A stretch of DNA of 64,000 nt, from IMG/VR virus record IMGVR_UViG_638276472_000001, positions 14,297-78,296 of that record. The stretch is one strand, 5' to 3'. Shown here one piece after another: positions 45,853 through 64,000 of this stretch. The first letter of the stretch is position 1, and every line of letters begins with the position of its first letter. The DNA comes from a virus. Lineage: Duplodnaviria; Caudoviricetes. The position numbers were made by a program, and so were the translations under genes. The notes under the pieces were generated by a model, which ran no database searches, was not told the DNA's origin, and saw only the letters and a list, made by a program, of their open reading frames with translations.

Positions 45853-45860
45853 AAAACTTT

Positions 45861-47353: not shown

Positions 47354-47360
47354 CGTCAAT

Positions 47361-47434
47361 GGCTTTGTAGCTCAACGGTTTTAGAGCAGCTGTCTAGTAA
47401 ACAGCCGACCAGGGTTCGACTCCCTGCTTAGCCT
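47361..47434 (+). tRNA. tRNA-Thr(AGT)
   Basis: Loop CTAGTAA, two U-U mismatches in the acceptor stem. Confidence 0.8.
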
Positions 47435-47506
47435 CGCAGAAGGTTCGCTACCTTCAAACGTCGAAACCAGGCGGGGATAACGACGTTAAACCAGGCCCCG
47501 CCCAAT

Positions 47507-47578
47507 GGGGGCGTAGTATAACGGCAATTACTGTTGGCTCTTACCCTTCAGATGGGAGTTCGACTCTCCCCGCCCTCA
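47507..47578 (+). tRNA. tRNA-Lys(CTT)
   Basis: Loop CTCTTAC, two U-U mismatches in the anticodon stem. Confidence 0.82.
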
Positions 47579-47585
47579 CTTCAAT

Positions 47586-47661
47586 GCCGGTGTGACAGAA
47601 CGATTTATGTGGCAGTCTGCAAAACTGACCTAAGCGGGTTTGACTCCCGCCACCGGTTCCA
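47586..47661 (+). tRNA. tRNA-Cys(GCA)
   Basis: Loop CTGCAAA, U73, encoded CCA. Confidence 0.88.
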
Positions 47662-47663
47662 AT

Positions 47664-47735
47664 TGGCCCGTAGTTCAACGGTAAGAACGGATCGCTGATA
47701 ACGATCAGACAAGAGTTCAACTCTCTTCGGGCCAA
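47664..47735 (+). tRNA. tRNA-Ile(GAT)
   Basis: Loop CTGATAA. Confidence 0.92.
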
Positions 47736-47842
47736 CGTTTAAGGTCGAAGCCGCAAAAGGCTAGTGATGCCAGGTAACTGGGTTAAGCACCGATGTGGGG
47801 TGTCCGTAACGAATCGACCTGGGGCAGTTACCCCACTTCAAT

Positions 47843-47915
47843 GCCCGTGTAGCTCAGTGGATAGAGCCGTGGCCTACGAAGCCATGGGCCGGGGGTTCGA
47901 ATCCCTCCACGGGTA
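47843..47915 (+). tRNA. tRNA-Arg(ACG)
   Basis: Canonical cloverleaf, loop CTACGAA. Confidence 0.94.
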
Positions 47916-47940
47916 CGTCAGGGCCTAGTAATGGCCCTTT

Positions 47941-48022
47941 GGAGAGTGATGCAACAGGGTGGTTGCACTCGCCTGCTAAGCGATGTGTCTGCAAGGATCA
48001 CGTTCAACTCGTGCTCTCTCCG
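47941..48022 (+). tRNA. tRNA-Ser(GCT), non-canonical fold
   Basis: Loop CTGCTAA, long variable arm, G73, 6-bp D stem, 4-bp T stem. Confidence 0.8.
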
Positions 48023-48024
48023 CT

Positions 48025-48098
48025 GTGTCTGTAGCTCAATGGTAGAGCCTCCCGCTGTGACCGGGACGACGACGGGTCAGAACCGTCCAGACACCCCA
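48025..48098 (+). tRNA. tRNA-His(GTG)
   Basis: Loop CTGTGAC, C73, encoded CCA, atypical T loop GTCAGAA. Confidence 0.85.
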
Positions 48099-48158
48099 CT
48101 TGGTTTCCTTAGACGCCAGAGGAACGTAAGCAGTCACAGGGGCGAGACTGGCCATAAT

Positions 48159-48243
48159 GGAGGGTAACGCCGGAAGGTACCGGCAGCGGTGTCGAATACC
48201 GTGTGGGTAGCCAATCCCAGGAGTTCAAGTCTTCTGCCCTTCG
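48159..48243 (+). tRNA. tRNA-Ser(CGA)
   Basis: Long variable arm, G73, loop GTCGAAT. Confidence 0.82.
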
Positions 48244-48313
48244 CGTGCGTGACCAAAAGACATGACGAAACCCGGCACCCCTCGACAATGCCGGATCTCG
48301 TTCTGTCACAGTG

Positions 48314-48631
48314 TTATTGAATGTAGCCTTCGTTGTAGGCGGCAAGTACCGAACGGGTGATACGAGGCAATGTTGCTCCGTAGCCCCACAATTCGGTGTC
48401 GTGGAAGTAGTGCATGGCCACTCGCTGAGCTGTTCGCTTGGTGTCGAATGGTCCCTCCACCACTTCCGCGTCCCGATGGCCATCACCGTCTTTTTCCCAG
48501 ATGGTGAGTACCCATTCGGGGTATGTCGATTCTTTGCGGCGCATGGTCACAAAGATCTCTTCTTCGGTCTCCGCTTGGTAGACCCCGGTGTCAACGCGGA
48601 CCCACTTGAGGTCCTGATCTGCATCTGTCAT
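48314..48631 (-). CDS. hypothetical protein antisense within the tRNA array
   Basis: 105 aa, MTDADQDLKWVRV...GPFDTKRTAQ, fills the only large gap in the array. Confidence 0.7.
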   Translation of the reverse strand: MTDADQDLKWVRVDTGVYQAETEEEIFVTMRRKESTYPEWVLTIWEKDGDGHRDAEVVEGPFDTKRTAQRVAMHYFHDTELWGYGATLPRITRSVLAAYNEGYIQ

Positions 48632-48729
48632 ACCTGCAATGTTACTCCCAAACCTGGGAATTCCCTTGTGGAGCACTGTTGATCATCGTATTACATAAGA
48701 TGCGATTCACGTTTTTGCCATTAACTAAT

Positions 48730-48801
48730 GGTTCCGTGGTGTAACGGTTAGCACCTGGGTCTTTCAAGCCCAAGGTCAGGGTTCAACTCCCTGCGGAACT
48801 G
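48730..48801 (+). tRNA. tRNA-Glu(TTC)
   Basis: Loop CTTTCAA. Confidence 0.92.
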
Positions 48802-48806
48802 CGCAT

Positions 48807-48877
48807 GGCCCACTGGTGTAATGGGAACACGCCACCCCCTCAAGGTGGAGTCAGGGGTTCAATTCCCCTGTGGGCTA
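48807..48877 (+). tRNA. tRNA-Glu(CTC)
   Basis: Loop CCCTCAA (C33). Confidence 0.87.
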
Positions 48878-48883
48878 CTCTAT

Positions 48884-48954
48884 TCCGGTATCGTTCAAAG
48901 GCAGGACACCAAGCTGTTAACTTGGCTATGTTGGTTCGATCCCAGCTACCGGAG
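48884..48954 (+). tRNA. tRNA-Asn(GTT)
   Basis: Loop CTGTTAA, G73. Confidence 0.92.
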
Positions 48955-48959
48955 CAACC

Positions 48960-52438: not shown

Positions 52439-52568
52439 GTTCTTTACTGACCTCTTCGGGTACACGAAACGCATTGTGTCCATTGAGTTTTTGTACTTCG
52501 CCTACGATGGGTATCTGGTGTGGCGTATCGAATTCGAAGATGGCACAAGGGTTGAGGAGCTAGTGTGA
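52419..52568 (+). CDS. small hypothetical protein
   Basis: MFNLLAEFF..., GTGA overlap with the next gene. Confidence 0.55.
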   Translation: MFNLLAEFFTDLFGYTKRIVSIEFLYFAYDGYLVWRIEFEDGTRVEELV

Positions 52569-52784
52569 TCGAGGTCCCCATCAAGATCAATGCGGATACC
52601 ATTGGTACCGTTGAGATTCGGCGCACTCACACCAGGGCCAACGGACTGCACTACTACGACTGGCACCTTTACGAGGGCGGCACTATTTCCGCTGAGGGTG
52701 CACTGTACCACGGCTGAGGAAATGGGAGCCTACGTCCTGGTGGCGGCTGTGATGAATCAGGTTGTGGCATGGATACTTCGATGA
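52565..52784 (+). pseudogene. small gene apparently split by a +1 frameshift near 52712
   Basis: MIEVPIKIN...ALYHG* continues as AEEMGAYVLVAAV...ILR* in the +1 frame. Confidence 0.45.
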
Positions 52785-52975
52785 AACCCACTGCCCCGAA
52801 AGGGAAGTTGCCCTGTGGCCACCCTGCCTACGTGTACGACATGGAGCGTGGATGCATGGCCGTGCTGCATCTAACACCTGAAGGATATGTGTTGTGCGGC
52901 ACCGACTTTGACTGTGTGATGCAGTGGGGGAGCCGGTACCCAGCTCGATACATCGTTGTCGGCGGGGATATGTAA
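52781..52975 (+). CDS. hypothetical protein
   Basis: ATGA overlap, last rightward gene. Confidence 0.6.
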   Translation: MKPTAPKGKLPCGHPAYVYDMERGCMAVLHLTPEGYVLCGTDFDCVMQWGSRYPARYIVVGGDM

Positions 52976-53006
52976 AGTAAGTTGATCTAACTAATTTTGG
53001 ACAAAT

Positions 53007-53042
53007 AAAAAAGAGAAGCCCCAGGCCCGAAAAGCCTGGGGT
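53007..53042 (-). terminator. intrinsic terminator of the leftward operon
   Basis: Minus strand ACCCCAGGC-TTTTCGG-GCCTGGGGC-TTCTCTTTTTT. Confidence 0.85.
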
Positions 53043-53057
53043 CCCCCGTATCTCCTC

Positions 53058-53237
53058 TCAGCAGTGTCGGCGCGTAGCCTTCCCCGCGTGGTGGAAGTAT
53101 CCGCACTGGCAGTGGTAGACCTGCATCGGTCGGGCCTTCCCTTTGCCACGCCGAGCGCGACGCTCCATGTCACGAATCGCTTTCTTGGCCTGAGCTTTTG
53201 TGCTGAAGGCTTCCTTGTATGGGTTCGGGCAAGTCAT
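53058..53237 (-). CDS. small basic Zn-finger-like protein (59 aa, not in ORF track)
   Basis: MTCPNPYKEAF...VYHCQCGYFH, TGATG overlap. Confidence 0.7.
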   Translation of the reverse strand: MTCPNPYKEAFSTKAQAKKAIRDMERRARRGKGKARPMQVYHCQCGYFHHAGKATRRHC

Positions 53238-53728
53238 CAGAGATCCGCTTCCCGTGCTAGGTAGTCGATCACGGCATCGTCGTCCTTGCCCGCGATCAGC
53301 ATCTCCAGCGCTGTCAGGACTGCGTCGCGCTTCAGCATTGAGCTGAACAGGTAGTAGGTAACGTTCTCTTCAAGGCCCAGCATTTTCGCTGCCAGGTCAG
53401 GCACGTAGTACAGCTTCCCGTCGTATTCGACTGTCCGCAGGAGCAGTGAGGTCACCCGTTGTGCGCGGCAGTTGGTATCGAATTCGAAGATGGTGTCCAA
53501 GTCGTGAGGCTTGGCACCGTTGAGCAGTACCGTCCACCCTGCCGAGCATGCTGCCGTGCCACAGGTGAGGGGGGCGGTGTGCATCGCCTTGCGATATTCG
53601 CCGAGGTATTCGTTGATCCTGTTTGGGTGAAGGTCCACGGAGACCCGGCCCCAGATTGTCTGATCGTGTGCGTCGGGGTGCTCCGACAGGAAGTGGTGCA
53701 ACCCCATCAGCGCGAGTGTGTTCCTCAT
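53237..53728 (-). CDS. hypothetical protein
   Basis: HPDAHDQTIW...CGTAACSAGW family, SD GAAAGGA. Confidence 0.8.
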   Translation of the reverse strand: MRNTLALMGLHHFLSEHPDAHDQTIWGRVSVDLHPNRINEYLGEYRKAMHTAPLTCGTAACSAGWTVLLNGAKPHDLDTIFEFDTNCRAQRVTSLLLRTVEYDGKLYYVPDLAAKMLGLEENVTYYLFSSMLKRDAVLTALEMLIAGKDDDAVIDYLAREADL

Positions 53729-53761
53729 GATTTCCTTTCCGTCCCAATACTTTTGGGATCG

Positions 53762-53801
53762 TGGGGTGCCGGGAATCGAACCCGGTTGAACCATTCACCC
53801 C
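53762..53801 (-). ncRNA. mini tRNA-like element (acceptor plus T arm)
   Basis: GGGGTG-AATGGTTCAA-CCGGG-TTCGATT-CCCGG-CACCCC-A. Confidence 0.7.
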
Positions 53802-53808
53802 GACCTAT

Positions 53809-53976
53809 TTAGTTGTCGATTTCGTTGTGTACCAACGTCTTTCCGTCCTCACTCACGTGGGGGCGGCAGGGGCACGCGGCGCTCAGCTTGTGCTTGCCGA
53901 ATTTGTGCCCCGACCAGGCAAGCTGGTCCTGGTAGTTCAGGACGATGCTCCCGTGTGGGAAGTGGTGGTCACTCAT
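53809..53976 (-). CDS. small hypothetical protein (55 aa)
   Basis: H...CPCRPH...HN motif, ATGA overlap. Confidence 0.65.
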   Translation of the reverse strand: MSDHHFPHGSIVLNYQDQLAWSGHKFGKHKLSAACPCRPHVSEDGKTLVHNEIDN

Positions 53977-54242
53977 CGCAGGTCTCCAATCTTGCCGGTG
54001 TCCAGCATCCGGACACGCTTTCCCTTGTGGGTCAGGATGGTTCCCGCATCATCAGCGGATGTGTATCCGTCCAACTCAGCCTGGCGTGTGGTCACGTACC
54101 ACACCTCCAGTTCGGGATGCTTCGAGTTGACCTCTCGCGCAAGGTCTGTCGCGCCCTCCCAGTCTGTGGCCACGTCAGTGACCCGCTTGAAGTGATTCGC
54201 GCGCGGCTTGCGATACGCGATGGTCCAGTAGTTCTTACCCAT
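53973..54242 (-). CDS. hypothetical protein
   Basis: 89 aa in operon. Confidence 0.75.
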   Translation of the reverse strand: MGKNYWTIAYRKPRANHFKRVTDVATDWEGATDLAREVNSKHPELEVWYVTTRQAELDGYTSADDAGTILTHKGKRVRMLDTGKIGDLR

Positions 54243-54245
54243 GAT

Positions 54246-54524
54246 TCACACCACCTTGATTTGTTCGGGTCGGAAGAAGCGGTCCAGCTTCCTCCCCTTG
54301 CGTCCACCTACGAAAGCCAGCGTCACCGCGCCGGTCTCCGTGTTCACCTCCGCGTACTGGAAGGTGAAGAGTTCCGCGTGCTTGCCCTTGGCCGTGCGTA
54401 CACGTACCTCAGTGCCACGCTCCAGCACTTTCTTGCCCAGTCGGTAGGAATCGTGCCGCTCCCACCCTGGGCGCTCCACGAGGGGCTTGTAGCGCTTGGG
54501 TCCGATGGTTGACTTGACGTTCAT
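54246..54524 (-). CDS. hypothetical protein
   Basis: SD AAGGGG, MNVKSTIG... Confidence 0.75.
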   Translation of the reverse strand: MNVKSTIGPKRYKPLVERPGWERHDSYRLGKKVLERGTEVRVRTAKGKHAELFTFQYAEVNTETGAVTLAFVGGRKGRKLDRFFRPEQIKVV

Positions 54525-54525
54525 G

Positions 54526-54771
54526 TCAGTTCCCCTTCTCTGCCTGATTGATGATGCTGATGTAGTAGTTGATCTTCGCTTGCACGTCGGACTCTCCGAC
54601 TGCCTTGATCGCGGCCACGTCGTCCTCGTCCCAGTACTCACCCGGTTCGGGGTAGAACACGTGCGACTGCGGTTCGTGCTCGAAGACTTCGGGGTCGATC
54701 TTCCCCTGGTCCACTTTCTCGTGAACCGCATCCATCAGTGCGTTCAGGATGATGTCTTGTGCTGCGCTCAT
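54526..54771 (-). CDS. hypothetical protein
   Basis: SD GGAGA, MSAAQDII... Confidence 0.75.
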   Translation of the reverse strand: MSAAQDIILNALMDAVHEKVDQGKIDPEVFEHEPQSHVFYPEPGEYWDEDDVAAIKAVGESDVQAKINYYISIINQAEKGN

Positions 54772-54859
54772 TTCTCCATTCCTTTCTAACCTGTTGCCTC
54801 TCAACAGATTTGGAAGTACCCCACCTGAAATAGCATGGGGTACAACCAGACTCATTGAG

Positions 54860-55018
54860 TCAGCGGGTACGCATCCGACCGTTGGTCTTGGTCAGTCGTA
54901 CCTTCTCGGCTTCCCTCTTCGTGCGACGGAAGCCCACCCACACACGACGTGTGGAGTTGACGTGGTACACGTGGTAACCCTGGCCACGCCCGCCCTTGAT
55001 CTCGTAGTTTCCGTTCAT
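54860..55018 (-). CDS. small hypothetical protein
   Basis: SD GGAGGAA, MNGNYEIK... Confidence 0.6.
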   Translation of the reverse strand: MNGNYEIKGGRGQGYHVYHVNSTRRVWVGFRRTKREAEKVRLTKTNGRMRTR

Positions 55019-55238
55019 CCGATCTTTCCTCCCATCCATGCCCTGAGGGGGAACCACAGGGACACCATCACCATGACCACGTAGCCCGTAGTCACTGCTC
55101 TTCCTTCCATGCGTCGATGCCCTCAACCTTGAGGTTGTTCACGATGGCATCGGCTTGCGTGCGACTCAGCCCAGTTGAAATGAACGCGGGCCTACCGTCT
55201 TGGCCAGTGATCCATACTTCGTACATCGTTGTCTCCCT

Positions 55239-55460
55239 TCAGAAGTGGGGATGCTCAGTGATGAACTCCGCCACCATCTTTCGTTTCTTCCATGTCCTCC
55301 GGATGATCGTGATGCCGAAGGTGGTGCCAAATGAGTTGATGGACACCGGGATTGAATCTGTCTCCACGAATGTCCATCCACGCTTCACGAACCAGTGCGT
55401 CGGGTCGTTGAGCTTGCGCCACATCATGCGCTTCTCACCCTTGAACAGGACTTCAGACAT
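55239..55460 (-). CDS. hypothetical protein
   Basis: TAATG overlap. Confidence 0.65.
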   Translation of the reverse strand: MSEVLFKGEKRMMWRKLNDPTHWFVKRGWTFVETDSIPVSINSFGTTFGITIIRRTWKKRKMVAEFITEHPHF

Positions 55461-55798
55461 TAGCTGCAATCCCATTCCGGGTGACCCGTGTATCGGATCT
55501 CCACGGCACCGGCACCGGGCATGCCGTAGTCACCGAGTGGTGCGTAGGCGTATTCCTCGTCCATATCCCCATTCCAGTACAGGGTCCCTGTGTAGTAGAG
55601 GATCTTGTCGTCGTCGTACATCCGGAACTGTGCATGGTGTTCGTAGTTGTGCGCCAACTCTTTTCGTGTGTCGTCGTAGTTGTCTGCTGCTGTGGTGTTC
55701 GCATCACGCGGTCCCACAACACCTTTGGCATCAGACAGGAAGTCATATGCCGGGTCGTACAGGTGATCCTTGTCGATGATCCATGCATAGTCAGACAT
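55460..55798 (-). CDS. hypothetical protein
   Basis: FRMYDDDKILYYTG motif, SD AGGGAG. Confidence 0.8.
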   Translation of the reverse strand: MSDYAWIIDKDHLYDPAYDFLSDAKGVVGPRDANTTAADNYDDTRKELAHNYEHHAQFRMYDDDKILYYTGTLYWNGDMDEEYAYAPLGDYGMPGAGAVEIRYTGHPEWDCS

Positions 55799-56006
55799 GA
55801 AGTGCTCCCTTCACCAGTTCCCGTGCTGACCGGTCGAGCTTGAGGTACGGCTCGAACTGTTCGGGCAGGTATTCGCGGCGGTCGAAATCGGTTATGCCAT
55901 CGTCCACAACGTAAGCCCATTGCTGGCTGTAGTTCAGCCAAACCCACAGTGTGCCTTGAGCATCCACCACAACCTCGTCGTCTATGGACACATCGATTGC
56001 CTTCAT
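55791..56006 (-). CDS. hypothetical protein
   Basis: Coupled ORF, MKAIDVS... Confidence 0.7.
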   Translation of the reverse strand: MKAIDVSIDDEVVVDAQGTLWVWLNYSQQWAYVVDDGITDFDRREYLPEQFEPYLKLDRSARELVKGALHV

Positions 56007-56260
56007 CAGTACCCCTTTCTGAGTACGTCCATGTGCATTGCTGTTGCTGTCTTCAATGCACGCTTGATCCCATCTCTCTTGTGCACCAACCGAATTGGTA
56101 CCTCTGCACCTGCACCATGCAGGTACCACCAACCATCATCACAGGTGACCCAGTGCCCTTCGCATCTCCATTCATTGATGGAATGCCGAAACCATTGCCA
56201 CCCACCGATATACAGCGAGTGGTTCAGGTAGTCGGGCTTGGGGTACGGCTTGGCCCACAT
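56006..56260 (-). CDS. hypothetical Trp-rich protein
   Basis: TGATG overlaps. Confidence 0.7.
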   Translation of the reverse strand: MWAKPYPKPDYLNHSLYIGGWQWFRHSINEWRCEGHWVTCDDGWWYLHGAGAEVPIRLVHKRDGIKRALKTATAMHMDVLRKGY

Positions 56261-56664
56261 CAGCTGTAGTGCCGATCACCTTGGTAGACATGGGAACCCG
56301 CGATGGTTTCCACTGTCACCCAATACGTTTCTTCACCGTCCACCTCCCGCAAAAAATCCTCCGGCAGGTTGCGTGACTCCAGCCACTCCAGTTCCGCCGC
56401 GCACTGACGGTTGAACTGATCCTTGGCTTCCGCTGTCAGGACTTCTGCGAGTTGACGCACGTCGTCCTCTAGGGCACGCGCCTCTTCCTCCGTGTTGACC
56501 TTGTGGTAGGCCACCAGTTCGGTGTCGCGCCCCCACCACCCACCTTCCTCCGGACCTCCATAGAACGGAACGTCACGGTAAAGGCTTACGAAGTAAGCAC
56601 TTTCGGCAGGCTTGGCATCCTTGATGATGGAGAAGAACGCATCCTTGATGGTCTTGTCACTCAT
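56260..56664 (-). CDS. hypothetical protein
   Basis: YGGPEEGGWW motif. Confidence 0.8.
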   Translation of the reverse strand: MSDKTIKDAFFSIIKDAKPAESAYFVSLYRDVPFYGGPEEGGWWGRDTELVAYHKVNTEEEARALEDDVRQLAEVLTAEAKDQFNRQCAAELEWLESRNLPEDFLREVDGEETYWVTVETIAGSHVYQGDRHYS

Positions 56665-56711
56665 TGTTCTCTCTCTTCCTGTTGTGGCGCAGTGCTTTTC
56701 ACTGCACCTCG

Positions 56712-56752
56712 TGCGCTGCCTGGGAGTCGAACCCAGGTACACCATTCAGCGC
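56712..56752 (-). ncRNA. mini tRNA-like element (acceptor plus T arm)
   Basis: GCGCTG-AATGGTGTA-CCTGGG-TTCGACT-CCCAGG-CAGCGC-A. Confidence 0.7.
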
Positions 56753-56765
56753 TCCCTCTATTCAG

Positions 56766-56990
56766 TTATCCAGCGTCGATATATCCCATTGGCCCATCGA
56801 AGTACCCATCATGGTTGTGCGGAATCAGAGGGTGTACCTCGTCTCTGTGGAATGCTGCCCGCTCGCCCTCATCGAATACCACGACGACGTTGGCCCACGT
56901 GGAATTGCCCAGGATGTTGCTGACGGTTCCAACCCCGCGACCGTGGACGACGACACGCTGGCCACGGTAATGCGTTGCGACTGGGTACAT
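56766..56990 (-). CDS. small SH3/KOW-like hypothetical protein
   Basis: GQRVVVHGRGVGTV, SD GGAG. Confidence 0.7.
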   Translation of the reverse strand: MYPVATHYRGQRVVVHGRGVGTVSNILGNSTWANVVVVFDEGERAAFHRDEVHPLIPHNHDGYFDGPMGYIDAG

Positions 56991-56991
56991 T

Positions 56992-57171
56992 TCAGAACTC
57001 CGCTTTCTCGATGGTCTTGTCTTCAACACGAATGATCTTGCCTCCCACGTTGATTCGCATTGCGTAGTCCGGTAGCACCTGGACCACGCGTCCGAATCGC
57101 GTTCGACCCGTGCGCTCATCCTTGAATGACACGAAGTCACCCGTGATGATGGACGCTGTGTTGTTGGACAT
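56992..57171 (-). CDS. small SH3/KOW-like hypothetical protein
   Basis: GDFVSF...GRVVQV, SD AGGGAG. Confidence 0.7.
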   Translation of the reverse strand: MSNNTASIITGDFVSFKDERTGRTRFGRVVQVLPDYAMRINVGGKIIRVEDKTIEKAEF

Positions 57172-57270
57172 GCTCACTCCCTGTTTGTTGTTGCGGCCCA
57201 AGACTTTTGAGCTCGCGATAATTTTGCAGAACTCTTTATAACCACTGCCGTGGCCATTTTCGGCCTATTT

Positions 57271-57585
57271 CTAGGCCGCCCAGACTCGCCCCCGGTTATC
57301 CAGTTTGGCGTACTGCGAGTACCTGACCGGAAAAGGACTGTCCGGTAGTTTGACAGTCTTACCATCGAAAGTCAGACTCTCCCAATCGATTTCGGGAGCT
57401 GATTCAGCTTCGAGTCCGGCGATGATCATGTGACCCTTGTGATGGACACGGAACTCTGGTGCGTGCAGCACCAATTCGCGGACAAACCTGGGTTGCTTTC
57501 CACGTTGGATTACCACCCAGGTATTGCCACGCGTATTCCGTTCCACAACGACTACGGGCACACGTGTCCCGTTGTTGCCTGACAA
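57271..57585 (-). CDS. hypothetical protein
   Basis: TTG start after GGGAGAGAA. Confidence 0.7.
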   Translation of the reverse strand: MSGNNGTRVPVVVVERNTRGNTWVVIQRGKQPRFVRELVLHAPEFRVHHKGHMIIAGLEAESAPEIDWESLTFDGKTVKLPDSPFPVRYSQYAKLDNRGRVWAA

Positions 57586-57632
57586 CAATTCTCTCCCTTC
57601 CATTGCTGGCCAACACGTTTGGTTGACCTAGT

Positions 57633-57683
57633 GGACTGTGGCACGTTTGAAGTGCCTTACCACCCAGGATTTGGGTACAGTCC
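57633..57683 (-). ncRNA. 51-nt tRNA-like three-way junction (class I)
   Basis: GGACTGT-ACCCA aatcc TGGGT-GGTAA-GGCAC ttcaaac GTGCC-ACAGTCC. Confidence 0.75.
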
Positions 57684-57692
57684 TCCCCTGGC

Positions 57693-57974
57693 TCACATCA
57701 GGGATTCAATGGCCCATGGATCGGACCAATTGATGTGCTGAACCTCAGCGTCATATGAACCCGCAACGGACGCAACGTGATACGCATTGCCATTGATCAG
57801 AACCGTTGTGGTGTACCGATATTCGCGCGGCAACCATTCCGTACGGACGATGGCATATCCGTGACGTGTGAGGACACGTTCACGATGAATCAGCCTGACC
57901 GGAGACACACTGATCCCGTGGTAGGGAAGTGAGTCCAGAGTAGGCAGACTGATGGCGCTGGCTGAATTCTGCAT
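57693..57974 (-). CDS. hypothetical protein
   Basis: SD AAGGAGAG. Confidence 0.75.
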   Translation of the reverse strand: MQNSASAISLPTLDSLPYHGISVSPVRLIHRERVLTRHGYAIVRTEWLPREYRYTTTVLINGNAYHVASVAGSYDAEVQHINWSDPWAIESLM

Positions 57975-58024
57975 TTCGATTCTCTCCTTATTCCATTGCA
58001 GGACAACCAATCTGATGTCCCAGC

Positions 58025-58058
58025 GCTATGCGAGTTTGGCCTAGTTCCCTCGCATAGC
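58025..58058 (-). ncRNA. 10-bp hairpin with conserved 14-nt loop (class III)
   Basis: GCTATGCGAG-GGAACTAGGCCAAA-CTCGCATAGC. Confidence 0.65.
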
Positions 58059-58066
58059 CTTGTGCC

Positions 58067-58342
58067 TCAAGCGATTTGAGACTCGCCTAACACCTTGCAT
58101 CCGTAGCACAATGACCCGTCCCCCGTGAGGAACAGTTCACCCATGGCGTACTCATGTGCGCAGTGATCACACAACAACGTGTCACCTTCCCTCAGCACAT
58201 CACTCTCACTGATGGTTTCTGATGGCTCAACGTTGATCTGAGGGACGAACCTGGGCACCACGGTGCGACGCCGACCCCAGGCACTACGCGTATGTCTGCG
58301 GCGGGCACGGAAGGTCAGCATGATCGTTTCGTTCACTTCCAC
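58067..58342 (-). CDS. hypothetical protein with CxxC...CxxC
   Basis: CDHC...CYGC. Start position uncertain. Confidence 0.7.
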   Translation of the reverse strand: MEVNETIMLTFRARRRHTRSAWGRRRTVVPRFVPQINVEPSETISESDVLREGDTLLCDHCAHEYAMGELFLTGDGSLCYGCKVLGESQIA

Positions 58343-58605
58343 ACCTCCACAGCGTGGCGCATTGCGCGCGTACCAACTTCGATCATCGTCCGTTTGGCAT
58401 GCTCATCGTCCCCAGGTGAGTAGTACTCACCATGGGCAACGTTCACGCGTCCCACGGCAGGGTCGGAGCTGGCCATGGTCACCACGTACCGATATCGGTT
58501 GGTGTGGTACCCGTGTCCCATGCTCCATGCGCGGGAGACGATCAGACGGAACTTACCGTCAGTCTTCACGTACGTATCGTCTGTTTCCGCAACATGTTTC
58601 GACAT
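58333..58605 (-). CDS. hypothetical protein
   Basis: SD GGAGAG. Confidence 0.75.
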   Translation of the reverse strand: MSKHVAETDDTYVKTDGKFRLIVSRAWSMGHGYHTNRYRYVVTMASSDPAVGRVNVAHGEYYSPGDDEHAKRTMIEVGTRAMRHAVEVWK

Positions 58606-58652
58606 TTCTCTCTCCATTCTCATTGTTGGCCAACGTGTTTCATTGGCCTAGC

Positions 58653-58686
58653 TCCCTAGTGGTTTGACCTAGTTCCCCACTAGGGA
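58653..58686 (-). ncRNA. 10-bp hairpin with conserved 14-nt loop (class III)
   Basis: TCCCTAGTGG-GGAACTAGGTCAAA-CCACTAGGGA. Confidence 0.65.
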
Positions 58687-58693
58687 TATCGGA

Positions 58694-58945
58694 CTACTCC
58701 GACATGATGCGTAGCGCTGCGAGCATGCCATCTACGAAGGTGGCCGCTTCCCGCAACGTGTCCGTGTAGAGCAACACGGTAATTCCCCCGTGTTCACTCA
58801 CCACGCGTTGAATCTGCACGGTGCCCATGGCGCGGTACAGCCGGATTGACCCAACAGTGTTGTATTCAACGTGGGAGAATCCCAATTTCCCGTTGAGTAC
58901 AGCCAACTTGGCATCCACAATTCGCCCAGTGATTCGATGCGCCAT
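58694..58945 (-). CDS. hypothetical protein
   Basis: SD GGAGAG, MAHRITGR... Confidence 0.75.
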   Translation of the reverse strand: MAHRITGRIVDAKLAVLNGKLGFSHVEYNTVGSIRLYRAMGTVQIQRVVSEHGGITVLLYTDTLREAATFVDGMLAALRIMSE

Positions 58946-58990
58946 TGTTCTCTCCATTCTCATTGTGAGGCAACGGGATTGCTGCCTAGT

Positions 58991-59041
58991 GCCCATGGGT
59001 ACGTTTGAAGTACCTAACCGGACACGTTGTGTCCCATGGGC
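58991..59041 (-). ncRNA. 51-nt tRNA-like three-way junction (class I)
   Basis: GCCCATG-GGACAC aac GTGTCC-GGTTA-GGTAC ttcaaac GTACC-CATGGGC. Confidence 0.75.
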
Positions 59042-59050
59042 TTTCACGTT

Positions 59051-59416
59051 CTACTTGTGATAGAACGCGTAGTCGGAATTCAGCCAGGGAAGCGTGCGAC
59101 CGTCACGGTACCGGAATTCCATGCTCCCATTCTTGATACCGACATGAATGCCAGTGTTAGCGAACAGAATTCGATCCAAACGGTTCGCTGTGGTACGTGT
59201 GACGTACCCACCATTGCTGACCCAGGTTTGCCGCGAGGACACGATGGCAATCACTGTGTTGTGATGCCTGACTTCAATTGCTGGCACGGGCACTGCATGT
59301 CCCTCTGTCGTCTCTCGCACCCAGGTTGCATAGGCAATTTTCACCCAGGTACGGGAACCGTTGGCCAGCGCGTGAAGGTTGGCATATGTCATCGCGGGAA
59401 GCTGAAGGTTCGTCAT
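59051..59416 (-). CDS. hypothetical protein
   Basis: NGGYVTRTTANRL motif family, SD AGGAGAG. Confidence 0.8.
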   Translation of the reverse strand: MTNLQLPAMTYANLHALANGSRTWVKIAYATWVRETTEGHAVPVPAIEVRHHNTVIAIVSSRQTWVSNGGYVTRTTANRLDRILFANTGIHVGIKNGSMEFRYRDGRTLPWLNSDYAFYHK

Positions 59417-59460
59417 TTTTCTCTCCTATTCCATTGGGGCTCAACGGATTTGAGCCTCGT

Positions 59461-59511
59461 ACCCATGGGCACGTTTGAAGTGCCTTACCGGACGCATTGC
59501 GTCCCATGGGT
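59461..59511 (-). ncRNA. 51-nt tRNA-like three-way junction (class I)
   Basis: ACCCATG-GGACGC aat GCGTCC-GGTAA-GGCAC ttcaaac GTGCC-CATGGGT. Confidence 0.75.
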
Positions 59512-59522
59512 TTTCGGTTGAC

Positions 59523-59843
59523 CTAGCGGTTCAACCATTCTTCGTACTGCGCTTCAAGCTCTTCAAACCTCAGCCGCGCGGCGAAGTTGCTTCCGTACGT
59601 TTCGATGAACACCAGACCATCAGTGTTCTCACGCACCACGAAGGACCCTGTGAGTTCATCGTCCGAAACGTCACCATAGGTTTCGATCTCTTCCTCGAAA
59701 GCATCACGGATACTGGCCAACTCAGTCGGAAGGTTGGTGACATATGCGAAGTGTCCCGTGGGGGACTCAACGTCACCGGAGCTTGCAGTGAACCAGCCGC
59801 CGGAAACCATTGCGACGAAAAGGTTCTCGATTGCAGTCTTCAT
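59523..59843 (-). CDS. hypothetical acidic protein
   Basis: SGDVESPTGHF motif, SD AGGAGAG. Confidence 0.8.
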   Translation of the reverse strand: MKTAIENLFVAMVSGGWFTASSGDVESPTGHFAYVTNLPTELASIRDAFEEEIETYGDVSDDELTGSFVVRENTDGLVFIETYGSNFAARLRFEELEAQYEEWLNR

Positions 59844-59889
59844 TGTTCTCTCCTATCCCATTGCGAGACAACCGATTTGGTGTCTCAGT

Positions 59890-59940
59890 ACCCATGGCTA
59901 CGTTCGAAGTAGCTGACCGGACGCTAAGCGTCCCATGGGT
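59890..59940 (-). ncRNA. 51-nt tRNA-like three-way junction (class I)
   Basis: ACCCATG-GGACGC tta GCGTCC-GGTCA-GCTAC ttcgaac GTAGC-CATGGGT. Confidence 0.75.
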
Positions 59941-59949
59941 TTTCGTTAT

Positions 59950-60225
59950 TTACTTGTGAGTGACCCCGACACTGACGAACACGCTCCGGTAAACGTCACC
60001 GTACTGATCAGCGCGTCCGGACTTCACAATGTGAAGGCTGAACTGTTGTCCCCCAACGTATTTGCGCGCTTTGGGGTACATTTCCGCGAGCCGTTCCGTT
60101 TCCTCGTCAGACCGCTTCAGCGCTGCGGGCAACGTGTCGAAGGTACCCAACACGTAGCTTCGCTGAACCTCAGCGTCCGGATGGCCCACGGTCTGGTCAA
60201 TCTCCCACAGTGTCACTTTGAACAT
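59950..60225 (-). CDS. hypothetical protein
   Basis: SD GGGAGG. Confidence 0.75.
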   Translation of the reverse strand: MFKVTLWEIDQTVGHPDAEVQRSYVLGTFDTLPAALKRSDEETERLAEMYPKARKYVGGQQFSLHIVKSGRADQYGDVYRSVFVSVGVTHK

Positions 60226-60226
60226 T

Positions 60227-60511
60227 TCAGTAGTCCTCCCCTGCGAAGTGAACAGTGATGTACGCGTGAATGGTTTCCTGCCCGATGGTCGAACCTTCCT
60301 GTGTCGGTTGACCATTCACGTACAACGTTGCGTTTTTCAGTCCGAACATTTCGATGACCGTACTCACCACTTGAGTAGGTGACATCATTTGACCACCGAT
60401 ACCGCCCAACATGAATGTTGGTGTCTCCAGTACCTTTGATGTGGTGCGTGCATTCTTCGTCTGAATCGTCTTGTAAACACGGACATCCACGTAGTGATTA
60501 CCGAAATTCAT
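60227..60511 (-). CDS. hypothetical protein
   Basis: SD AGGAGAG. Confidence 0.75.
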   Translation of the reverse strand: MNFGNHYVDVRVYKTIQTKNARTTSKVLETPTFMLGGIGGQMMSPTQVVSTVIEMFGLKNATLYVNGQPTQEGSTIGQETIHAYITVHFAGEDY

Positions 60512-60558
60512 TGTTTTCTCTCCTATCCTTTGTGCGGCAACGTGTTTCGTTACCCAGT

Positions 60559-60618
60559 GTCCCGTGTTGCTTCGATGGCCTACCACCCACACATACGAAA
60601 TGTGTTGTGGCACGGGAC
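60559..60618 (-). ncRNA. structured element class II
   Basis: GTCCCGTG/CACGGGAC closing stem, CCAC..GTGG arm, TAGGCCATCGAAGCAA. Confidence 0.6.
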
Positions 60619-60630
60619 CGTTGCTTGTTG

Positions 60631-60894
60631 TTACCAGTGAACGAAGATTGGTTCCAGCACGAAATTTCCACGATGGTCACGTTCGGGAAGCTCTCGCACC
60701 CAACCAAGGTATGCGTCAAAGAACACGGTAGGCCATGGGACCTCGTGCCCATTGTCATCATGCAGTTGGTGCTTCCCCGTGAAATTGGGAGGCACTTCGT
60801 TCGTGATGTCATACGCCTCGTCCCCATATCCCAGGTCGGACGGTTCTACCTCGTCCCAGGCGGGGGATACGCGCTTCACAGCAAGCTTGATCAT
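60631..60894 (-). CDS. hypothetical protein
   Basis: SD AGGAGAG. Confidence 0.75.
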   Translation of the reverse strand: MIKLAVKRVSPAWDEVEPSDLGYGDEAYDITNEVPPNFTGKHQLHDDNGHEVPWPTVFFDAYLGWVRELPERDHRGNFVLEPIFVHW

Positions 60895-60943
60895 TTGTTC
60901 TCTCCTATCCTTGTGTGTGGCAATCCATTTCGGATTACCTAGC

Positions 60944-61001
60944 GCACTGTGTTGCTTCGATTGCCTACCACCTACACATGAAATGTGTTGTGGCACAGTG
61001 C
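60944..61001 (-). ncRNA. structured element class II
   Basis: GCACTGTG/CACAGTGC closing stem, CCAC..GTGG arm, TAGGCAATCGAAGCAA. Confidence 0.6.
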
Positions 61002-61009
61002 TTGATGCT

Positions 61010-61303
61010 CTACTTTGCGTAGAGTTCTTTGACCGCCAATTGCATGTCATCCAACTTTTGTCTCGTCTCCCATACTTCGCCTTCGAAGGTGGGCATGAAG
61101 ACTAGATACAGTGCCCGCCATGCACCTTCGATCTCGGTGGCACGCGTTTTGATCGCCGCACGTGAATCGTAGGAAGGGTGATCTTTGAAAGCTCGCACAC
61201 GGTCTACCAGGAAGCGCGCTTCCGTGTGGATGTGGGAAAGCATGGCGTGCAGTGCTTTGGCATCTTCGTGCTGGTCCAACTTGGCATCACTTGACTTCAG
61301 CAT
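61010..61303 (-). CDS. hypothetical protein
   Basis: SD GGAGAG. Confidence 0.75.
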   Translation of the reverse strand: MLKSSDAKLDQHEDAKALHAMLSHIHTEARFLVDRVRAFKDHPSYDSRAAIKTRATEIEGAWRALYLVFMPTFEGEVWETRQKLDDMQLAVKELYAK

Positions 61304-61350
61304 TTGTTCTCTCCATTCTCATTGTGAGGCAATGCGTTTCATTGCCTAGT

Positions 61351-61401
61351 ACCCATGGTCACGTTCGAAGTGACTGACCGGACACGTTGTGTCCCATGGG
61401 C
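61351..61401 (-). ncRNA. 51-nt tRNA-like three-way junction (class I)
   Basis: GCCCATG-GGACAC aac GTGTCC-GGTCA-GTCAC ttcgaac GTGAC-CATGGGT. Confidence 0.75.
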
Positions 61402-61408
61402 TTTCGGA

Positions 61409-61591
61409 CTAGCTGAAGCTATGTCCATACTCTTGATCGCTTGCGTAGTCTGTCCATCCTGCGATGAACGCGTTGACCTGGGTTGAACCGTGACGTTCTT
61501 CGAACCTCGTCTCAGCCGCACCCAGGTCATAGGTGGTTGTACGTTTGGACGCGTCCCAACCTTTGCGGTAGGCCTGACTTGCGTTGATCAT
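61409..61591 (-). CDS. hypothetical protein
   Basis: AYRKGWDAS...AFIAGWTD (Rmf-like repeat pattern). Confidence 0.75.
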   Translation of the reverse strand: MINASQAYRKGWDASKRTTTYDLGAAETRFEERHGSTQVNAFIAGWTDYASDQEYGHSFS

Positions 61592-61621
61592 TTCTCTTGT
61601 CTCCCTTGTGTGTTGGGTAAA

Positions 61622-61834
61622 TCAGTGAGTGTAAAAATCCGAAATGTCTTGAAGCGCATCACGTTTGGTGTAAACGGGATCGAATTGCAGCTGACCTTCC
61701 ATATCAGTGATGTACCAAAGCCATTCACTCCCCCAGTCGGCGGGGGATTGCTTGTGCTCGATACGGAAGTAGTGCGAAGGTGTGGTCACGTCGTATAGGC
61801 CAGCGCGAACACGCTTCACGATCATATTCTTCAT
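61622..61834 (-). CDS. hypothetical protein (first gene of leftward operon)
   Basis: SD AGGGAGG, RAGLY...W...YTKRDA motif. Confidence 0.8.
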   Translation of the reverse strand: MKNMIVKRVRAGLYDVTTPSHYFRIEHKQSPADWGSEWLWYITDMEGQLQFDPVYTKRDALQDISDFYTH

Positions 61835-61874
61835 TTCGTCCTCCCTTGTGGCGCAACGTGTTTCGTTGCTTCGT

Positions 61875-61925
61875 GCCCGTGAGTGTTCCGATGATGACTC
61901 TTACGATTCAAGATGAATCACGGGC
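61875..61925 (-). ncRNA. 51-nt divergent class I-like three-way junction
   Basis: GCCCGT-GATTCA tct TGAATC-GTAA-GAGT catcatcggaac ACTC-ACGGGC. Confidence 0.55.
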
Positions 61926-61929
61926 AAAC

Positions 61930-64000
61930 ACAATGGATTTGGAAAGAGAGAAGGCTGACACCAGAACCGAACCCGACTGTCTCACAAGCCAATTGGATTT
62001 TCACAGTGTTACAACGATTCGAACGGACCATCTGTGTTCACGGTGTCTGGTAGATCGCCTCAAGTGAGGTGAGAGCTGAACCGCTGGTGTAGGACCACGT
62101 CACCAGGAAAGACCTGGGATAGGTGACCATCACAGCGCATGTGCCAATTGCTGCCGGTAGGTGTGCCAGCTATTTAGTTCTCATGCCTTCCGCGCGCTCT
62201 CATTGCGCTTCCCGTGCCCGAAGGTTTCGGTTCTGCGGTACTCCGGTACGAATGACCCGTGTCAGGTAGTCACCCGCTGAGCTGTACCCTCACGCTTTCG
62301 CGTCAGGCCTCGGCTCTGCCGGTAGGTCACCCCCCCGCGCGGGGCGAAGGTGGTGGTTAGCGGTTCCCAGGGCATGCGGTCCCGCTCACAACCACCATCA
62401 TTCCCCAGGTGGTCAAGTGCTGCCCTGGTCACCAGGGAGAACGTCACCAGGGCGGCACACCTGGGTGTGCAGTGACCCCAGAGGGCACATCCCGACCAGG
62501 GCACTTCCACGGAGAGTGACGAACGGACTTACCCATGTGCGATTGCTACCAGGAAGGTTGTCAGTCTGTTAGATCTTGATTCAGGGGCCATTCTGTACAT
62601 TTGCCCAGGTCAGCCCAGGTATGGGTGCTTGCTGTTGTTAGCACTGTGTTAGCGCTCGATACATAGCCTGACCAGGCTTTATAACAGTCTGGTAACGATA
62701 CTTGCTACCACCTGACATAATGTAATCGAAAAGCTTTCGGTAAGCATGTACTTAGACAGTCTTCCTAGATTCATGTTCTAATGTCAGGACAAAGGTTTGT
62801 CAGGACAAAGGTCGGATTTTGGCCTGGCCCAGGTACGTACCCAAAACATCGAAATGATTGCGTCCCAACGTGTTTCGGAAATGCCTTGTGGCACAACGGG
62901 AAATACCTTGTTCAGTCCTGACGGTGTTCACCTGGGATGAACCGCACGGGACACTGAACACGTCCTGGGCACACCTACACATGGGCACGGACACCAATTC
63001 CCCAAACACGTTGCCACACCGTCTGATTGAGCCCGGGAATGGCCAAACCTGTTGCGTCCCATAGTCGGTACCCATGGCGCTATGGCATGCCCTGTAGACA
63101 CACCTGGGGGTCATATGGACTGTATGACTGATGGTCTAACCATTGTCTGGTGAATGGATTAACCATCACACAATCACACCATCGAATTGCCCAATGGTCT
63201 AACCATCAAATCTTGAAATGGTATGACCTCAGACCGTAGGACCGTATGGCCAGAATTCACCCCTGGGCTGAATGGCATTGGGGGACATAGGGAATGGTGC
63301 TTGTATGGCTCTCAGAATGGCCAAATGTGTTGTGGCGCAACGGTGCCCAGAGGTTTGGCCGCAAAAGGAGAAAAAGGACCTTTGAACCACAATTCAACCC
63401 TTCTGCAATACAGCCGTATAGGCCTACAGGGAATGGACGCTATACGCATATACAGCACTAGCCCCATATGGCGCTCACCTACACCCAGGGAATGGCATGC
63501 GCACCCAATAGTGAATGGGCTCACAATGGCGTGATTCGCTCTCACACAATGGCCAGACTGGTAAATGGGAATGGCTCACAGGGTTGATAAAGGTGCGCTC
63601 AACTCTATCAAGATCAGTTGTTTAGCCTGTCAAAAGGAAATCTGAGTTATCTGTAACCGCATCAAGATCAGTATGTGTTACCGGCCTGCCAGTTAAGGTC
63701 AGACCAATGCCCTGACCAGGCACTATGCAAGTGTGAATATGGGTCATCCTGGGGAAATGCACCAAACATGCAGGTCAGAGGCTTAGTTAGCACATCAAAC
63801 ACAGGTTGTGAACATGCAGGTCAAGACGACTTACAGATGCAGATGAATGGTGGCAACAATGGCCAATTCCAAGTTTGCCCAGAAGCATTCAAGCCAGCAA
63901 ACAACGCACTCTGACCAGGCAATATGCCGAGGATGTGAGGTGCCAGCAACGTGCATCCGTTTGCCAGGGGGGGTACCCCGAGCTGCGAAATGGCCGGACA
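61930..64000. other. apparently non-coding right-terminal region with short repeats
   Basis: No ORF with a credible SD, lower GC, several repeated motifs. Ends in GGGGGGGTACCCC. Confidence 0.6.
63131..63206. repeat. three ATGG-N5-CCAT inverted-repeat boxes
   Basis: ATGGTCTAACCAT at 63131 and 63194, ATGGATTAACCAT at 63154. Confidence 0.7.

Follow-up and report, generated by a model that had tools for sequence, protein, structure and literature searches.

Intergenic RNA cassettes with tRNA-like folds and a tRNA-trailer-like linker as candidate punctuation of an early mycobacteriophage operon

Main

The tRNA punctuation model of mitochondria is said to go back to Ojala et al. in 1981. In bacteriophage T7, host RNase III cuts intergenic structures of the early transcript and leaves a 3′ hairpin on the upstream message; these sites are long irregular duplexes, with about two turns of duplex RNA and an internal loop. 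The closest known system to the one described here is that of the t-elements of plant mitochondria, presented by Forner et al. (2007, PMC1920247) as non-decoding tRNA-like structures at mRNA boundaries, with a presumed role in guiding RNase Z and/or RNase P to make the 5′ and 3′ ends of mRNAs in polycistronic transcripts. Here we analyse a series of structured intergenic RNA cassettes in the leftward early operon of a Wildcat-type Cluster V mycobacteriophage (IMG/VR record IMGVR_UViG_638276472_000001). The window, that is, the whole 64,000-nucleotide stretch examined, comprises bases 14297–78296 of the 78,296-bp genome, and the cassettes lie on its minus strand between positions 53729 and 61925. 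Each joins a compact fold (fold 1), a short unpaired linker mostly of the form R-C-K-R, a second hairpin (hairpin 2) and a purine-rich ribosome site ahead of a start codon. Compensatory changes support the conclusion that the folds are RNA structures under selection, and we propose with moderate confidence that the cassettes are RNA cutting and stabilising punctuation, cut at R↓C.

Like the t-elements, the cassettes place a tRNA-like fold against an mRNA boundary, here a predicted one, inside a polycistronic transcript. They differ in belonging to a phage early operon and not an organelle, in carrying a fixed linker, 5′ hairpin and ribosome site as parts of every element, in accepting non-tRNA folds in the same slot and in lacking the RNase P-side signature; cleavage, too, is here a proposal. 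From the T7 sites they are set apart by stems of 6–10 bp, tRNA-mimic shapes and a proposed cut in a single-stranded linker. A T7-type RNase III site was rejected, the longest uninterrupted cassette helices being 10 bp and the proposed cut site unpaired. The mascRNA and menRNA of MALAT1 and MEN-beta (RF01684) are alike in that a tRNA-like fold within a long transcript directs tRNA-processing enzymes to make an RNA end, but they belong to the eukaryotic nucleus, where it is RNase P that makes the functional 3′ end. RF01684 matched nowhere in the window; its one hit, below threshold, was to a copy from a Streptomyces phage (E 0.18).

Repeated elements just before start codons are also known from Cluster K phages, where passages of Pope et al. 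(2011, PMC3203893) describe SAS and ESAS elements with an inverted repeat and a conserved purine-rich ribosome-site region upstream of many starts. Despite this likeness, SAS and ESAS have neither a tRNA-like fold nor an R-C-K-R linker, and we rejected membership of that family: the SAS consensus GGGATAGGAGCCC (13 bp), allowing up to three mismatches, matched 17 times in the window against 17.9 expected, and only one match fell in a cassette (59847–59859).

The same region was studied in Wildcat (genes 143–171) by Ko and Hatfull (2020, PMC7474061). In the passages drawn on here, 11 of the 15 gaps in the segment of genes 155–170 measure 80–100 bp, Motif 1 (60 bp) occurs in four gaps and Motif 2 (45 bp) in two, and no motif is common to all gaps. 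The region is expressed early and very highly during infection, with a "shark-tooth" RNAseq coverage whose minima lie at the gaps, from RNA prepared on RNeasy columns. The authors identified no promoters or terminators for these gaps, suggested independent expression of many of the genes, and noted a mosaic gene content in which 12 of 29 genes have homologues in other clusters. Their Motif 1, matched by its four-gap count, corresponds to our class 1 folds and Motif 2 to our class 2 folds, on the same DNA; those passages speak of neither RNA folds, tRNA likeness, a shared linker nor relatives in other phages.

Results

Thirteen cassettes share one layout

The cassette-bearing genes are small, leftward, early genes at the right end of the genome. 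The region is 98.0–98.5% identical to that of Mycobacterium phages Cosmo, Azrael100 and EniyanLRS (genus Wildcatvirus, Cluster V); in the Cosmo record, every gene in it is a "hypothetical protein" and the gaps are unannotated. We read the minus strand, folded every operon gap and scored minimum free energies (MFE) as z-scores against dinucleotide shuffles. Thirteen cassettes emerged, 12 reported earlier and one more at 54772–54843, each running from fold 1 through linker, hairpin 2 and purine-rich ribosome site to the start codon. Fold 1 is 34–60 nt long with a closing stem of 6–10 bp, begins 7–18 nt past the upstream stop codon and has a stability of −14 to −26 kcal/mol. Next come a linker of 3–4 nt and hairpin 2, which mostly lies 13–26 nt ahead of the start codon at a fairly constant spacing; the start codon itself lies 34–50 nt beyond the linker. 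The z-score was −2.0 or lower in 11 of the 13 cassette gaps, and −1.03 and −1.21 in the other two. With all gaps folded, only two in the operon were without a cassette, 61592–61621 and 57172–57270. The latter, the sole long gap without one, is A+T-rich with a small hairpin at its start (minus strand) and may be an internal promoter or carry another signal.

Hairpin 2 resisted a common model: RNAalifold on a MAFFT alignment of the 13 tail-to-start segments gave zero consensus pairs because hairpin lengths differ, and hairpin 2 is therefore described from single-sequence folds only. A leader motif, RATRGGAGAGAA, matched six times in the window against 0.62 expected, five of the six within cassettes.

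A preliminary description of this DNA, made from its letters, had listed 12 cassettes with their tails and the layout of fold, tail, hairpin, ribosome site and start codon. Gap reading and folding bore out all 12 positions, 12/12 tails and the layout in 12/12 reported gaps; each listed position marks where fold 1 ends, with the tail beginning there or one base below. The count was incomplete, missing the thirteenth copy with its TTCC tail. That description had also spoken of four fold classes keeping one tail; the tail is indeed kept across classes, but these number five, the copy at 61875 standing alone. Its view of this top copy as promoter-proximal and without an upstream gene needs correcting, as the copy does not open the transcript: RNA contigs reach at least 340 nt further upstream (61981–62350, minus strand), where Cosmo has an annotated 31-codon open reading frame. 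The operon promoter was not found.

The folds are RNA structures under selection

Class 1 has five copies, each exactly 51 nt long. They are cassette 2 (61304–61401; fold 61401–61351, ACTA 61350–61347, hairpin 2 61346–61328, start 61303), cassette 5 (59844–59940; fold 59940–59890, ACTG 59889–59886, hairpin 2 ~59885–59864, start 59843), cassette 6 (59417–59511; fold 59511–59461, ACGA 59460–59457, hairpin 2 after the tail, start 59416), cassette 7 (58946–59041; fold 59041–58991, ACTA 58990–58987, hairpin 2 58986–58969, start 58945) and a divergent copy, cassette 10 (57586–57683; fold 57683–57633, ACTA 57632–57629, hairpin 2 57628–57608, TTG start 57585), whose acceptor and mini-hairpin sequences differ from those of the others. 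In their ungapped MAFFT alignment, 98.9% of cells were paired and 12 of 18 pairs carried a compensatory change; no slid or shuffled control came close to the observed pairing.

Class 2 consists of cassette 3 (60895–61001; fold 61001–60944, 58 nt, with an 8-bp closing stem, GCTA 60943–60940, hairpin 2 60939–60919, start 60894) and cassette 4 (60512–60618; fold 60618–60559, 60 nt, ACTG 60558–60555, hairpin 2 60554–60536, start 60511), and the 8-bp closing stem of cassette 4 is fully compensated relative to that of cassette 3. The two class 3 folds keep the same 14-nt loop, GGAACTAGGYCAAA, on two unrelated 10-bp stems: cassette 8 (58606–58686; fold 58686–58653, GCTA 58652–58649, hairpin 2 58648–58628, start 58605) and cassette 9 (57975–58058; fold 58058–58025, GCTG 58024–58021, hairpin 2 58020–58001, start 57974). 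In Cosmo and EniyanLRS, whose genomes are ~98% identical overall, 13 positions of the fold at 58025 are changed. Four of its stem pairs are doubly substituted, all in a compensatory way, the loop has a single C-to-T change at its Y position only, and the tail has gone from GCTG to GCTA.

The two class 4 copies, which we call mini-TLDs after the tRNA-like domain (TLD) of transfer-messenger RNA (tmRNA), belong to a wider family found in other phages (see below). In that family, whose alignment was fitted to its own covariance model, 94.3% of cells were paired, 15 of 18 pairs were compensatory and 0 of 500 shuffles reached as high a value. Both this alignment and that of class 1 contain G-U pairs on the sense (coding) strand, and the structure is therefore read in RNA.

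Seven folds mimic the acceptor/T-arm half of tRNA

Seven of the 12 reported folds, those of classes 1 and 4, are acceptor/T-arm stacks without an anticodon: a 5-bp stem with a TTCRANN loop stacked on a closing stem of 6–7 bp. A whole-genome scan for this arrangement returned the seven cassettes on the minus strand and only two other places, both in the tRNA array, against a mean of 0.12 hits in shuffled genomes, in agreement with the seven TTCRA T-loop arms on acceptor-like stems of the preliminary description. In class 1, a 7-bp acceptor-like stem, a mini hairpin, a GGT internal linker and a 5-bp stem with a TTCRAAC loop make up a 12-bp stack in which the loop is closed by C-G and not G-C; cassette 2, for instance, has a 6-bp mini hairpin and the loop TTCGAAC. 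No fold is a cloverleaf, all being 34–60 nt long without an anticodon arm.

Class 4 (39–40 nt) has the acceptor/T-arm feature in full in both copies, with a 6-bp acceptor stem, a GAATGGT internal linker and a canonical T arm. Cassette 11 spans 56665–56752 (fold 56752–56713 with a 6-bp acceptor, AATGGT linker and canonical T arm; ACGA 56712–56709; hairpin 2 56708–56686; start 56664) and cassette 13 spans 53729–53801 (fold 53801–53763, ACGA 53762–53759, hairpin 2 53758–53742, start 53728). The Rfam tmRNA model (RF00023) aligns 53759–53801 end to end over the tRNA-like domain, reaching from model position 1 to position 374 but skipping the middle (E 3.9e-4; 18.1 bits), and aligns a copy from phage Predator in the same way (E 9.9e-5), both below the gathering threshold. 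The T arm of cassette 13 equals that of the phage's own tmRNA at 17/17 bases, and the 5′ strands are alike. Only class 4 has the features of the tmRNA TLD (acceptor stem, D-loop analogue and T arm); common to it and its relatives are the acceptor stem, the canonical T arm and, with no D stem, a GAnnGGy D-loop analogue. As a full tmRNA it fails, since the middle of the model is deleted, scores reach 18–21 bits against a gathering threshold of 47, and there is no tag reading frame and no pseudoknot. Nor do the folds have the G3-U70 pair, their third acceptor pair being G-C. Unlike tmRNA, class 4 folds and their relatives lack an mRNA-like region and sit in mRNA leaders, in the other phages with 9–13 copies per array.

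The remaining cassettes keep the layout on other folds. Cassette 1, alone in class 5, spans 61835–61925 (fold 61925–61875, 51 nt, closing stem 8–11 bp; ACGA 61874–61871; hairpin 2 ~61869–61852; start 61834). In the MFE structure of this top leader, the ribosome site of the first gene (61835–61850, minus strand) is paired with a stretch of pyrimidines, CTTCTCTCTTTCC (61926–61950), that lies upstream of fold 1. Cassette 12, at 54772–54843, has a plain 9-bp hairpin (54843–54816), a linker beginning TTCC, hairpin 2 at ~54810–54788 and its start at 54771.

Rfam 15 has no family for the cassettes, an outcome of interest in that the preliminary description had held that such a match would remove their novelty. 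Matches to mir-33 and freshwater-1, and to microRNA, sbcD and similar families in other phage loci, fell far below gathering and were rejected as chance.

The linker resembles the start of a tRNA 3′ trailer

Across all five fold classes, the 12 reported cassettes share the linker R-C-K-R; cassette 12 differs (TTCC). The phage's own tRNA and tmRNA genes (44516–48955, plus strand) have C directly after the discriminator in 24/24 cases and T or G after this C74 in 18/24, and encode CCA in three of the 24 (Met, Cys and His); Rfam coordinates confirm the register used for these gene ends. The preliminary description had likened the tail to the ends of these genes, reading ACGA after tRNA-Pro and ACTA after tRNA-Val, and both the readings and the likeness were borne out. 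A Kribbella genome, an actinobacterial stand-in and not the actual host, has C74 in 39/39 distinct tRNA genes and a full CCA in eight. Among 44 minihelices parsed in five phages, 39 have A or G and then C after the helix, and none of these 39 has C next; the other five are mostly shifted parses, and one Caliburn copy reads ACCG in the model alignment.

The 5′ side follows another rule. Position −1 is T in 24/24 phage tRNA and tmRNA genes but in 0/12 cassettes, where it is A in nine, and A stands there in 35 of the 44 minihelices of the five phages. The strict T(−1) rule being absent from the cassettes, excision by RNase P is less likely.

Two further elements of the tRNA array were noted. At tRNA-Leu(tag), ACGTA is followed by a small hairpin downstream (46358–46382, plus strand), with a weak match to the cassette model (E 0.02) over the tRNA 3′ half and the hairpin; real array tRNAs can therefore share the tail-plus-hairpin layout. 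Between tRNA-Gly(gcc) and tRNA-Gln, positions 46855–46926 (plus strand) hold an unannotated tRNA-like element with an intact acceptor stem and T arm that neither ARAGORN nor Rfam called.

Mini-TLD cassettes recur in arrays in other actinobacteriophages

A blastn search with the cassette at 53762 matched unannotated gaps of Cluster H phages. In Predator and Oaker, gaps between small rightward genes hold the same module, in which an acceptor of 5–6 bp, a GAnnGGy linker and a canonical T arm lead into ACGA, and a 7-bp hairpin then precedes the ribosome site and ATG. The preliminary description had proposed covariance-model searches of related phages, and a model built from 10 copies revealed arrays of 9–13 copies: nine full-length matches in Predator (E 5e-7 or lower) plus one at E 0.003, 10 in Oaker (E 4e-7 or lower) plus weaker ones, 13 in 9 kb of Send513 (Cluster R) and nine in 9 kb of Streptomyces phage Caliburn. 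In the Wildcat-type genome, the model matched the two class 4 copies. Each of the 10 strong Oaker matches falls in an annotated gap, on the same strand as the genes, and the first of them precedes the first gene of the array. The Caliburn matches fall within a block of small genes in one orientation, an Ocr-like gene and an HNH endonuclease among them.

With an Oaker cassette as the query, blastn reached at least 144 phage records (113 Streptomyces, 25 Mycobacterium and 6 Gordonia phages) at 622 places, and most of the matches listed have no annotated feature beneath them. By blastn, classes 1, 2 and 3 have relatives only in three other Cluster V records. The strict mini-TLD motif also occurs in seven stretches of bacterial genome contigs, three of them in Kribbella with further clustered model hits. 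Exact copies in metagenome-assembled genome (MAG) contigs labelled Marinifilaceae, Chloroflexota and Bacteroidetes lie outside Actinobacteria; these three may be phage contigs binned into MAGs.

In Predator, two cassette matches (1482–1547 and 4707–4770 of the analysed stretch) fall within gp42 and gp49 at the 5′ ends as annotated; the start codons of these genes may have been called too far upstream. In Oaker, a long near-perfect inverted repeat at ~36040–36210, within a 1.2-kb unannotated stretch upstream of the cassette array, accounts for the spurious microRNA and sbcD matches in Rfam.

Transcripts cross the cassettes, and modules are exchanged at the linker

Transcript data came as assembled contigs from two infection RNA runs. 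One contig (53116–59876) bridges eight cassettes and another (59936–61889) bridges three. One run has no coverage beyond 62215, which argues against plain DNA carry-over. Holes between contigs, considered as evidence of cutting, were discounted because contigs cannot show ends: the breaks of run X1 at 59877–59935 and 61890–61980 and all five of run X2 (58640–58822, 59834–59959, 60549–60617, 60930–61175 and 61868–61872) overlap cassettes, and the C of the top linker, at 61873, is where one X2 contig ends.

The operon ends in a canonical intrinsic terminator (53010–53041, minus strand), with a 10-bp G+C stem and then a T run. A terminator scan found this site on the coding strand and none in any cassette there, no cassette having such a T run; its two class 1 hits are on the opposite strand. 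Similarly, a scan for sigma-70-like promoters (−35 and −10 elements at 16–18 nt spacing, and so not mycobacterial promoters with a −10 element only) found none in the cassettes and one in 52500–62600 (55330–55303, within coding sequence), against 5.0 expected. Transcription starts or stops at these sites were among the outcomes that the preliminary description had set against its processing reading, and these sequence scans found no candidate of either kind there.

A natural exchange marks the module boundary. Relative to 61304–61621, EniyanLRS (9062–9319 of the analysed stretch) has a different small gene and a class 2 fold in place of the gene at 61409–61591 and its class 1 fold. The two sequences agree up to the gene's first codons, and then again from the linker CTA through hairpin 2; the first base of the linker is G in Wildcat and A in EniyanLRS. 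The junction thus lies in the linker, so that fold 1 moves together with the upstream gene and hairpin 2 belongs to the downstream one, and the exchanged unit is the same as that which a linker cut would yield.

Discussion

A model of cutting and stabilising punctuation

We propose that each cassette would act in cis to punctuate the long leftward early transcript. Fold 1 would be the 3′ end structure of the upstream message, and the linker R-C-K-R would copy the start of an actinobacterial pre-tRNA 3′ trailer, namely the discriminator, C74 and a non-C base. A host endonuclease would cut the linker at R↓C, candidates being RNase Z, which acts on a tRNA-like helix and cuts CCA-less pre-tRNAs behind the discriminator, or RNase E, acting on single-stranded RNA 5′ of C. 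The upstream mRNA would be left capped by the compact fold, and that end might receive CCA; the downstream mRNA would start with about three free bases followed by hairpin 2 as a 5′ stabiliser. Each gene or coupled gene block, many of them host-toxic, would become its own stable message. In the top leader, a linker cut would in addition free the ribosome site of the first gene from its pairing with CTTCTCTCTTTCC. That a cut occurs, whether it falls after R or after RC, and which enzyme makes it are inferences.

Both candidate enzymes have a footing in mycobacteria. RNase E cuts 5′ of C with purines upstream, according to passages of one study (PMC10641625), and passages of another state that RNase Z is present in M. 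tuberculosis and that 32 of 45 tRNA genes of that species lack CCA (PMC10673834). As the linker is shared by five fold classes, with 5 of 12 folds not tRNA-like, the enzyme may read the linker and not the tRNA shape; the rule of C74 and a non-C base, together with the tRNA mimicry, favours the tRNA 3′ pathway. We favour neither enzyme over the other.

Several observations weigh against this proposal. Classes 2, 3 and 5 (5 of 12 folds) have no T arm and were not tRNA-like by any test run. ARAGORN called 23 tRNAs and the tmRNA at 44516–48955 and none in 53600–62100, and the Rfam tRNA model (RF00005) found no match in the cassette region even at E values up to 10. The T-loop closing pair of class 1 is C-G, where tRNA has G53-C61, and most minihelices outside class 1 stack 11 bp and not 12 bp; we considered that A(−1) and A73 might form a twelfth layer in these. 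Bacillus RNase Z favours U, not C, after the discriminator. The RNase E motif, RN↓CNU in passages of PMC10641625, has U at +3, and cassette linkers carry a purine there. The contigs, which cannot show RNA ends, read through 11 cassettes; unprocessed RNA therefore exists, and any cutting is partial.

Alternative explanations

The preliminary description had host tRNA-processing nucleases cutting the early transcript, and this survives in part: seven of 12 acceptor/T-arm stacks, the trailer-like tail and a layout that fits short protected mRNAs speak for it, whereas the five folds without tRNA likeness and the absence of T(−1) do not. In its fuller form, RNase P on the 5′ side and RNase Z on the 3′ side would excise each fold, as in mitochondrial tRNA punctuation, and the free 40–60 nt mimics would serve as decoys. 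We consider this unlikely, even though seven folds carry the acceptor/T-arm stack that both enzymes read and the tail matches a tRNA trailer. RNeasy columns lose small RNAs. Excision would accordingly fit the dips at the gaps in published RNAseq, for which passages of PMC7474061 report RNeasy-prepared RNA. Excision would, however, leave the 3′ end of the upstream mRNA unprotected, position −1 does not follow the rule seen in the tRNA genes of the phage, and five folds are unlike tRNA. In the EniyanLRS swap, moreover, fold 1 goes with the upstream gene as its 3′ end, contrary to the release of small mimics. The decoy role is without support, with no evidence for a target in folds that lack an anticodon arm and G3-U70.

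A more doubtful alternative is that the folds are barriers or insulators without a site-specific cut, blocking 3′–5′ and 5′–3′ exonucleases and uncoupling the translation of neighbours, so that single-gene decay intermediates accumulate. The stability of fold 1, its start shortly past the stop codon, the fairly constant distance from hairpin 2 to the start codon and the RNA contigs that read through the cassettes are all consistent with such a role. It would nevertheless leave unexplained the tRNA and TLD mimicry, as well as the invariant C and trailer signature of an unpaired linker kept over five fold classes and four phage groups.

Similarly doubtful is the view that the mini-tRNA and mini-tmRNA folds, abundantly produced from the early transcript with the highest expression and kept in at least 144 actinobacteriophage records, act on the host's tRNA-handling machinery beyond serving as cutting signals; possible targets would be the CCA-adding enzyme, RNase P or Z, SmpB/EF-Tu and tRNA-targeting toxins or defences. 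If true, this would amount to a phage-wide RNA strategy to take over or shield the translation apparatus, coupled to toxic early proteins. We regard as improbable the related idea that the cassettes act in trans or bind a protein. The folds, displayed or set free in quantity early on, would then be ligands of a host or phage factor: SmpB or EF-Tu by virtue of the TLD shape, the CCA-adding enzyme, a toxin or defence that targets tRNA, or a phage protein that binds RNA at the class 3 loop. In its favour are the likeness of the folds to the tmRNA TLD, the retention of one 14-nt loop in class 3 despite unrelated stems, and the very high early expression of the region reported in passages of PMC7474061. 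Against it, no partner is known, the elements are always sense-oriented and directly before a ribosome site, and the five fold classes share only linker and layout, which indicates a role in cis.

That the cassettes are transcription signals, either promoters or U-less terminators or attenuators, appears quite improbable. U-less terminators are found in the early region of actinophage phiC31. Published coverage also drops at the gaps, and its authors suggest independent expression (passages of PMC7474061). Yet the cassettes have no sigma-70-like site, in a 10-kb stretch with one such site against five expected, and the stem with T run at the operon end has no counterpart in them; RNA contigs bridge 11 cassettes, and a cassette also precedes the first gene of arrays. 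The compensatory changes and sense-strand G-U pairs further point to RNA pairing and not to DNA recognition. Finally, DNA-level recombination linkers that shuffle gene cassettes between phages are very improbable, for although the EniyanLRS swap junction lies in the linker and gene content is mosaic (12 of 29 genes with homologues in other clusters, in passages of PMC7474061), stem sequence drifts by compensatory pairs, which denotes selection on RNA pairing and not DNA homology, and gene shuffling is better seen as a by-product.

Significance

The preliminary description knew of no precedent in phage mRNA. We too found no description of tRNA-like intergenic cassettes in actinobacteriophages in open-access full text or bioRxiv, and to that extent the claim holds. 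It needs narrowing on two counts, one being that punctuation by RNase III is known from T7. The other is that the gaps and two motifs were already described by Ko and Hatfull (2020), in the passages of PMC7474061 drawn on here.

If the punctuation model is right, the compact parts of a cassette (cut site, 3′ cap and 5′ stabiliser) would be available for multi-gene constructs in mycobacteria, and the C74-only 3′ ends of actinobacterial tRNA genes would be linked to a testable processing signal. It would also explain the 80–100 bp gaps of Wildcat and the "shark-tooth" RNAseq of its toxic early genes (passages of PMC7474061), and would mean that the tRNA-type punctuation of organelles is also used by bacteriophages. 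The cassettes represent an RNA family that is absent from Rfam and recurs in arrays in Mycobacterium, Streptomyces and Gordonia phages, which alters the annotation of what have been taken as "non-coding gaps" in these genomes.

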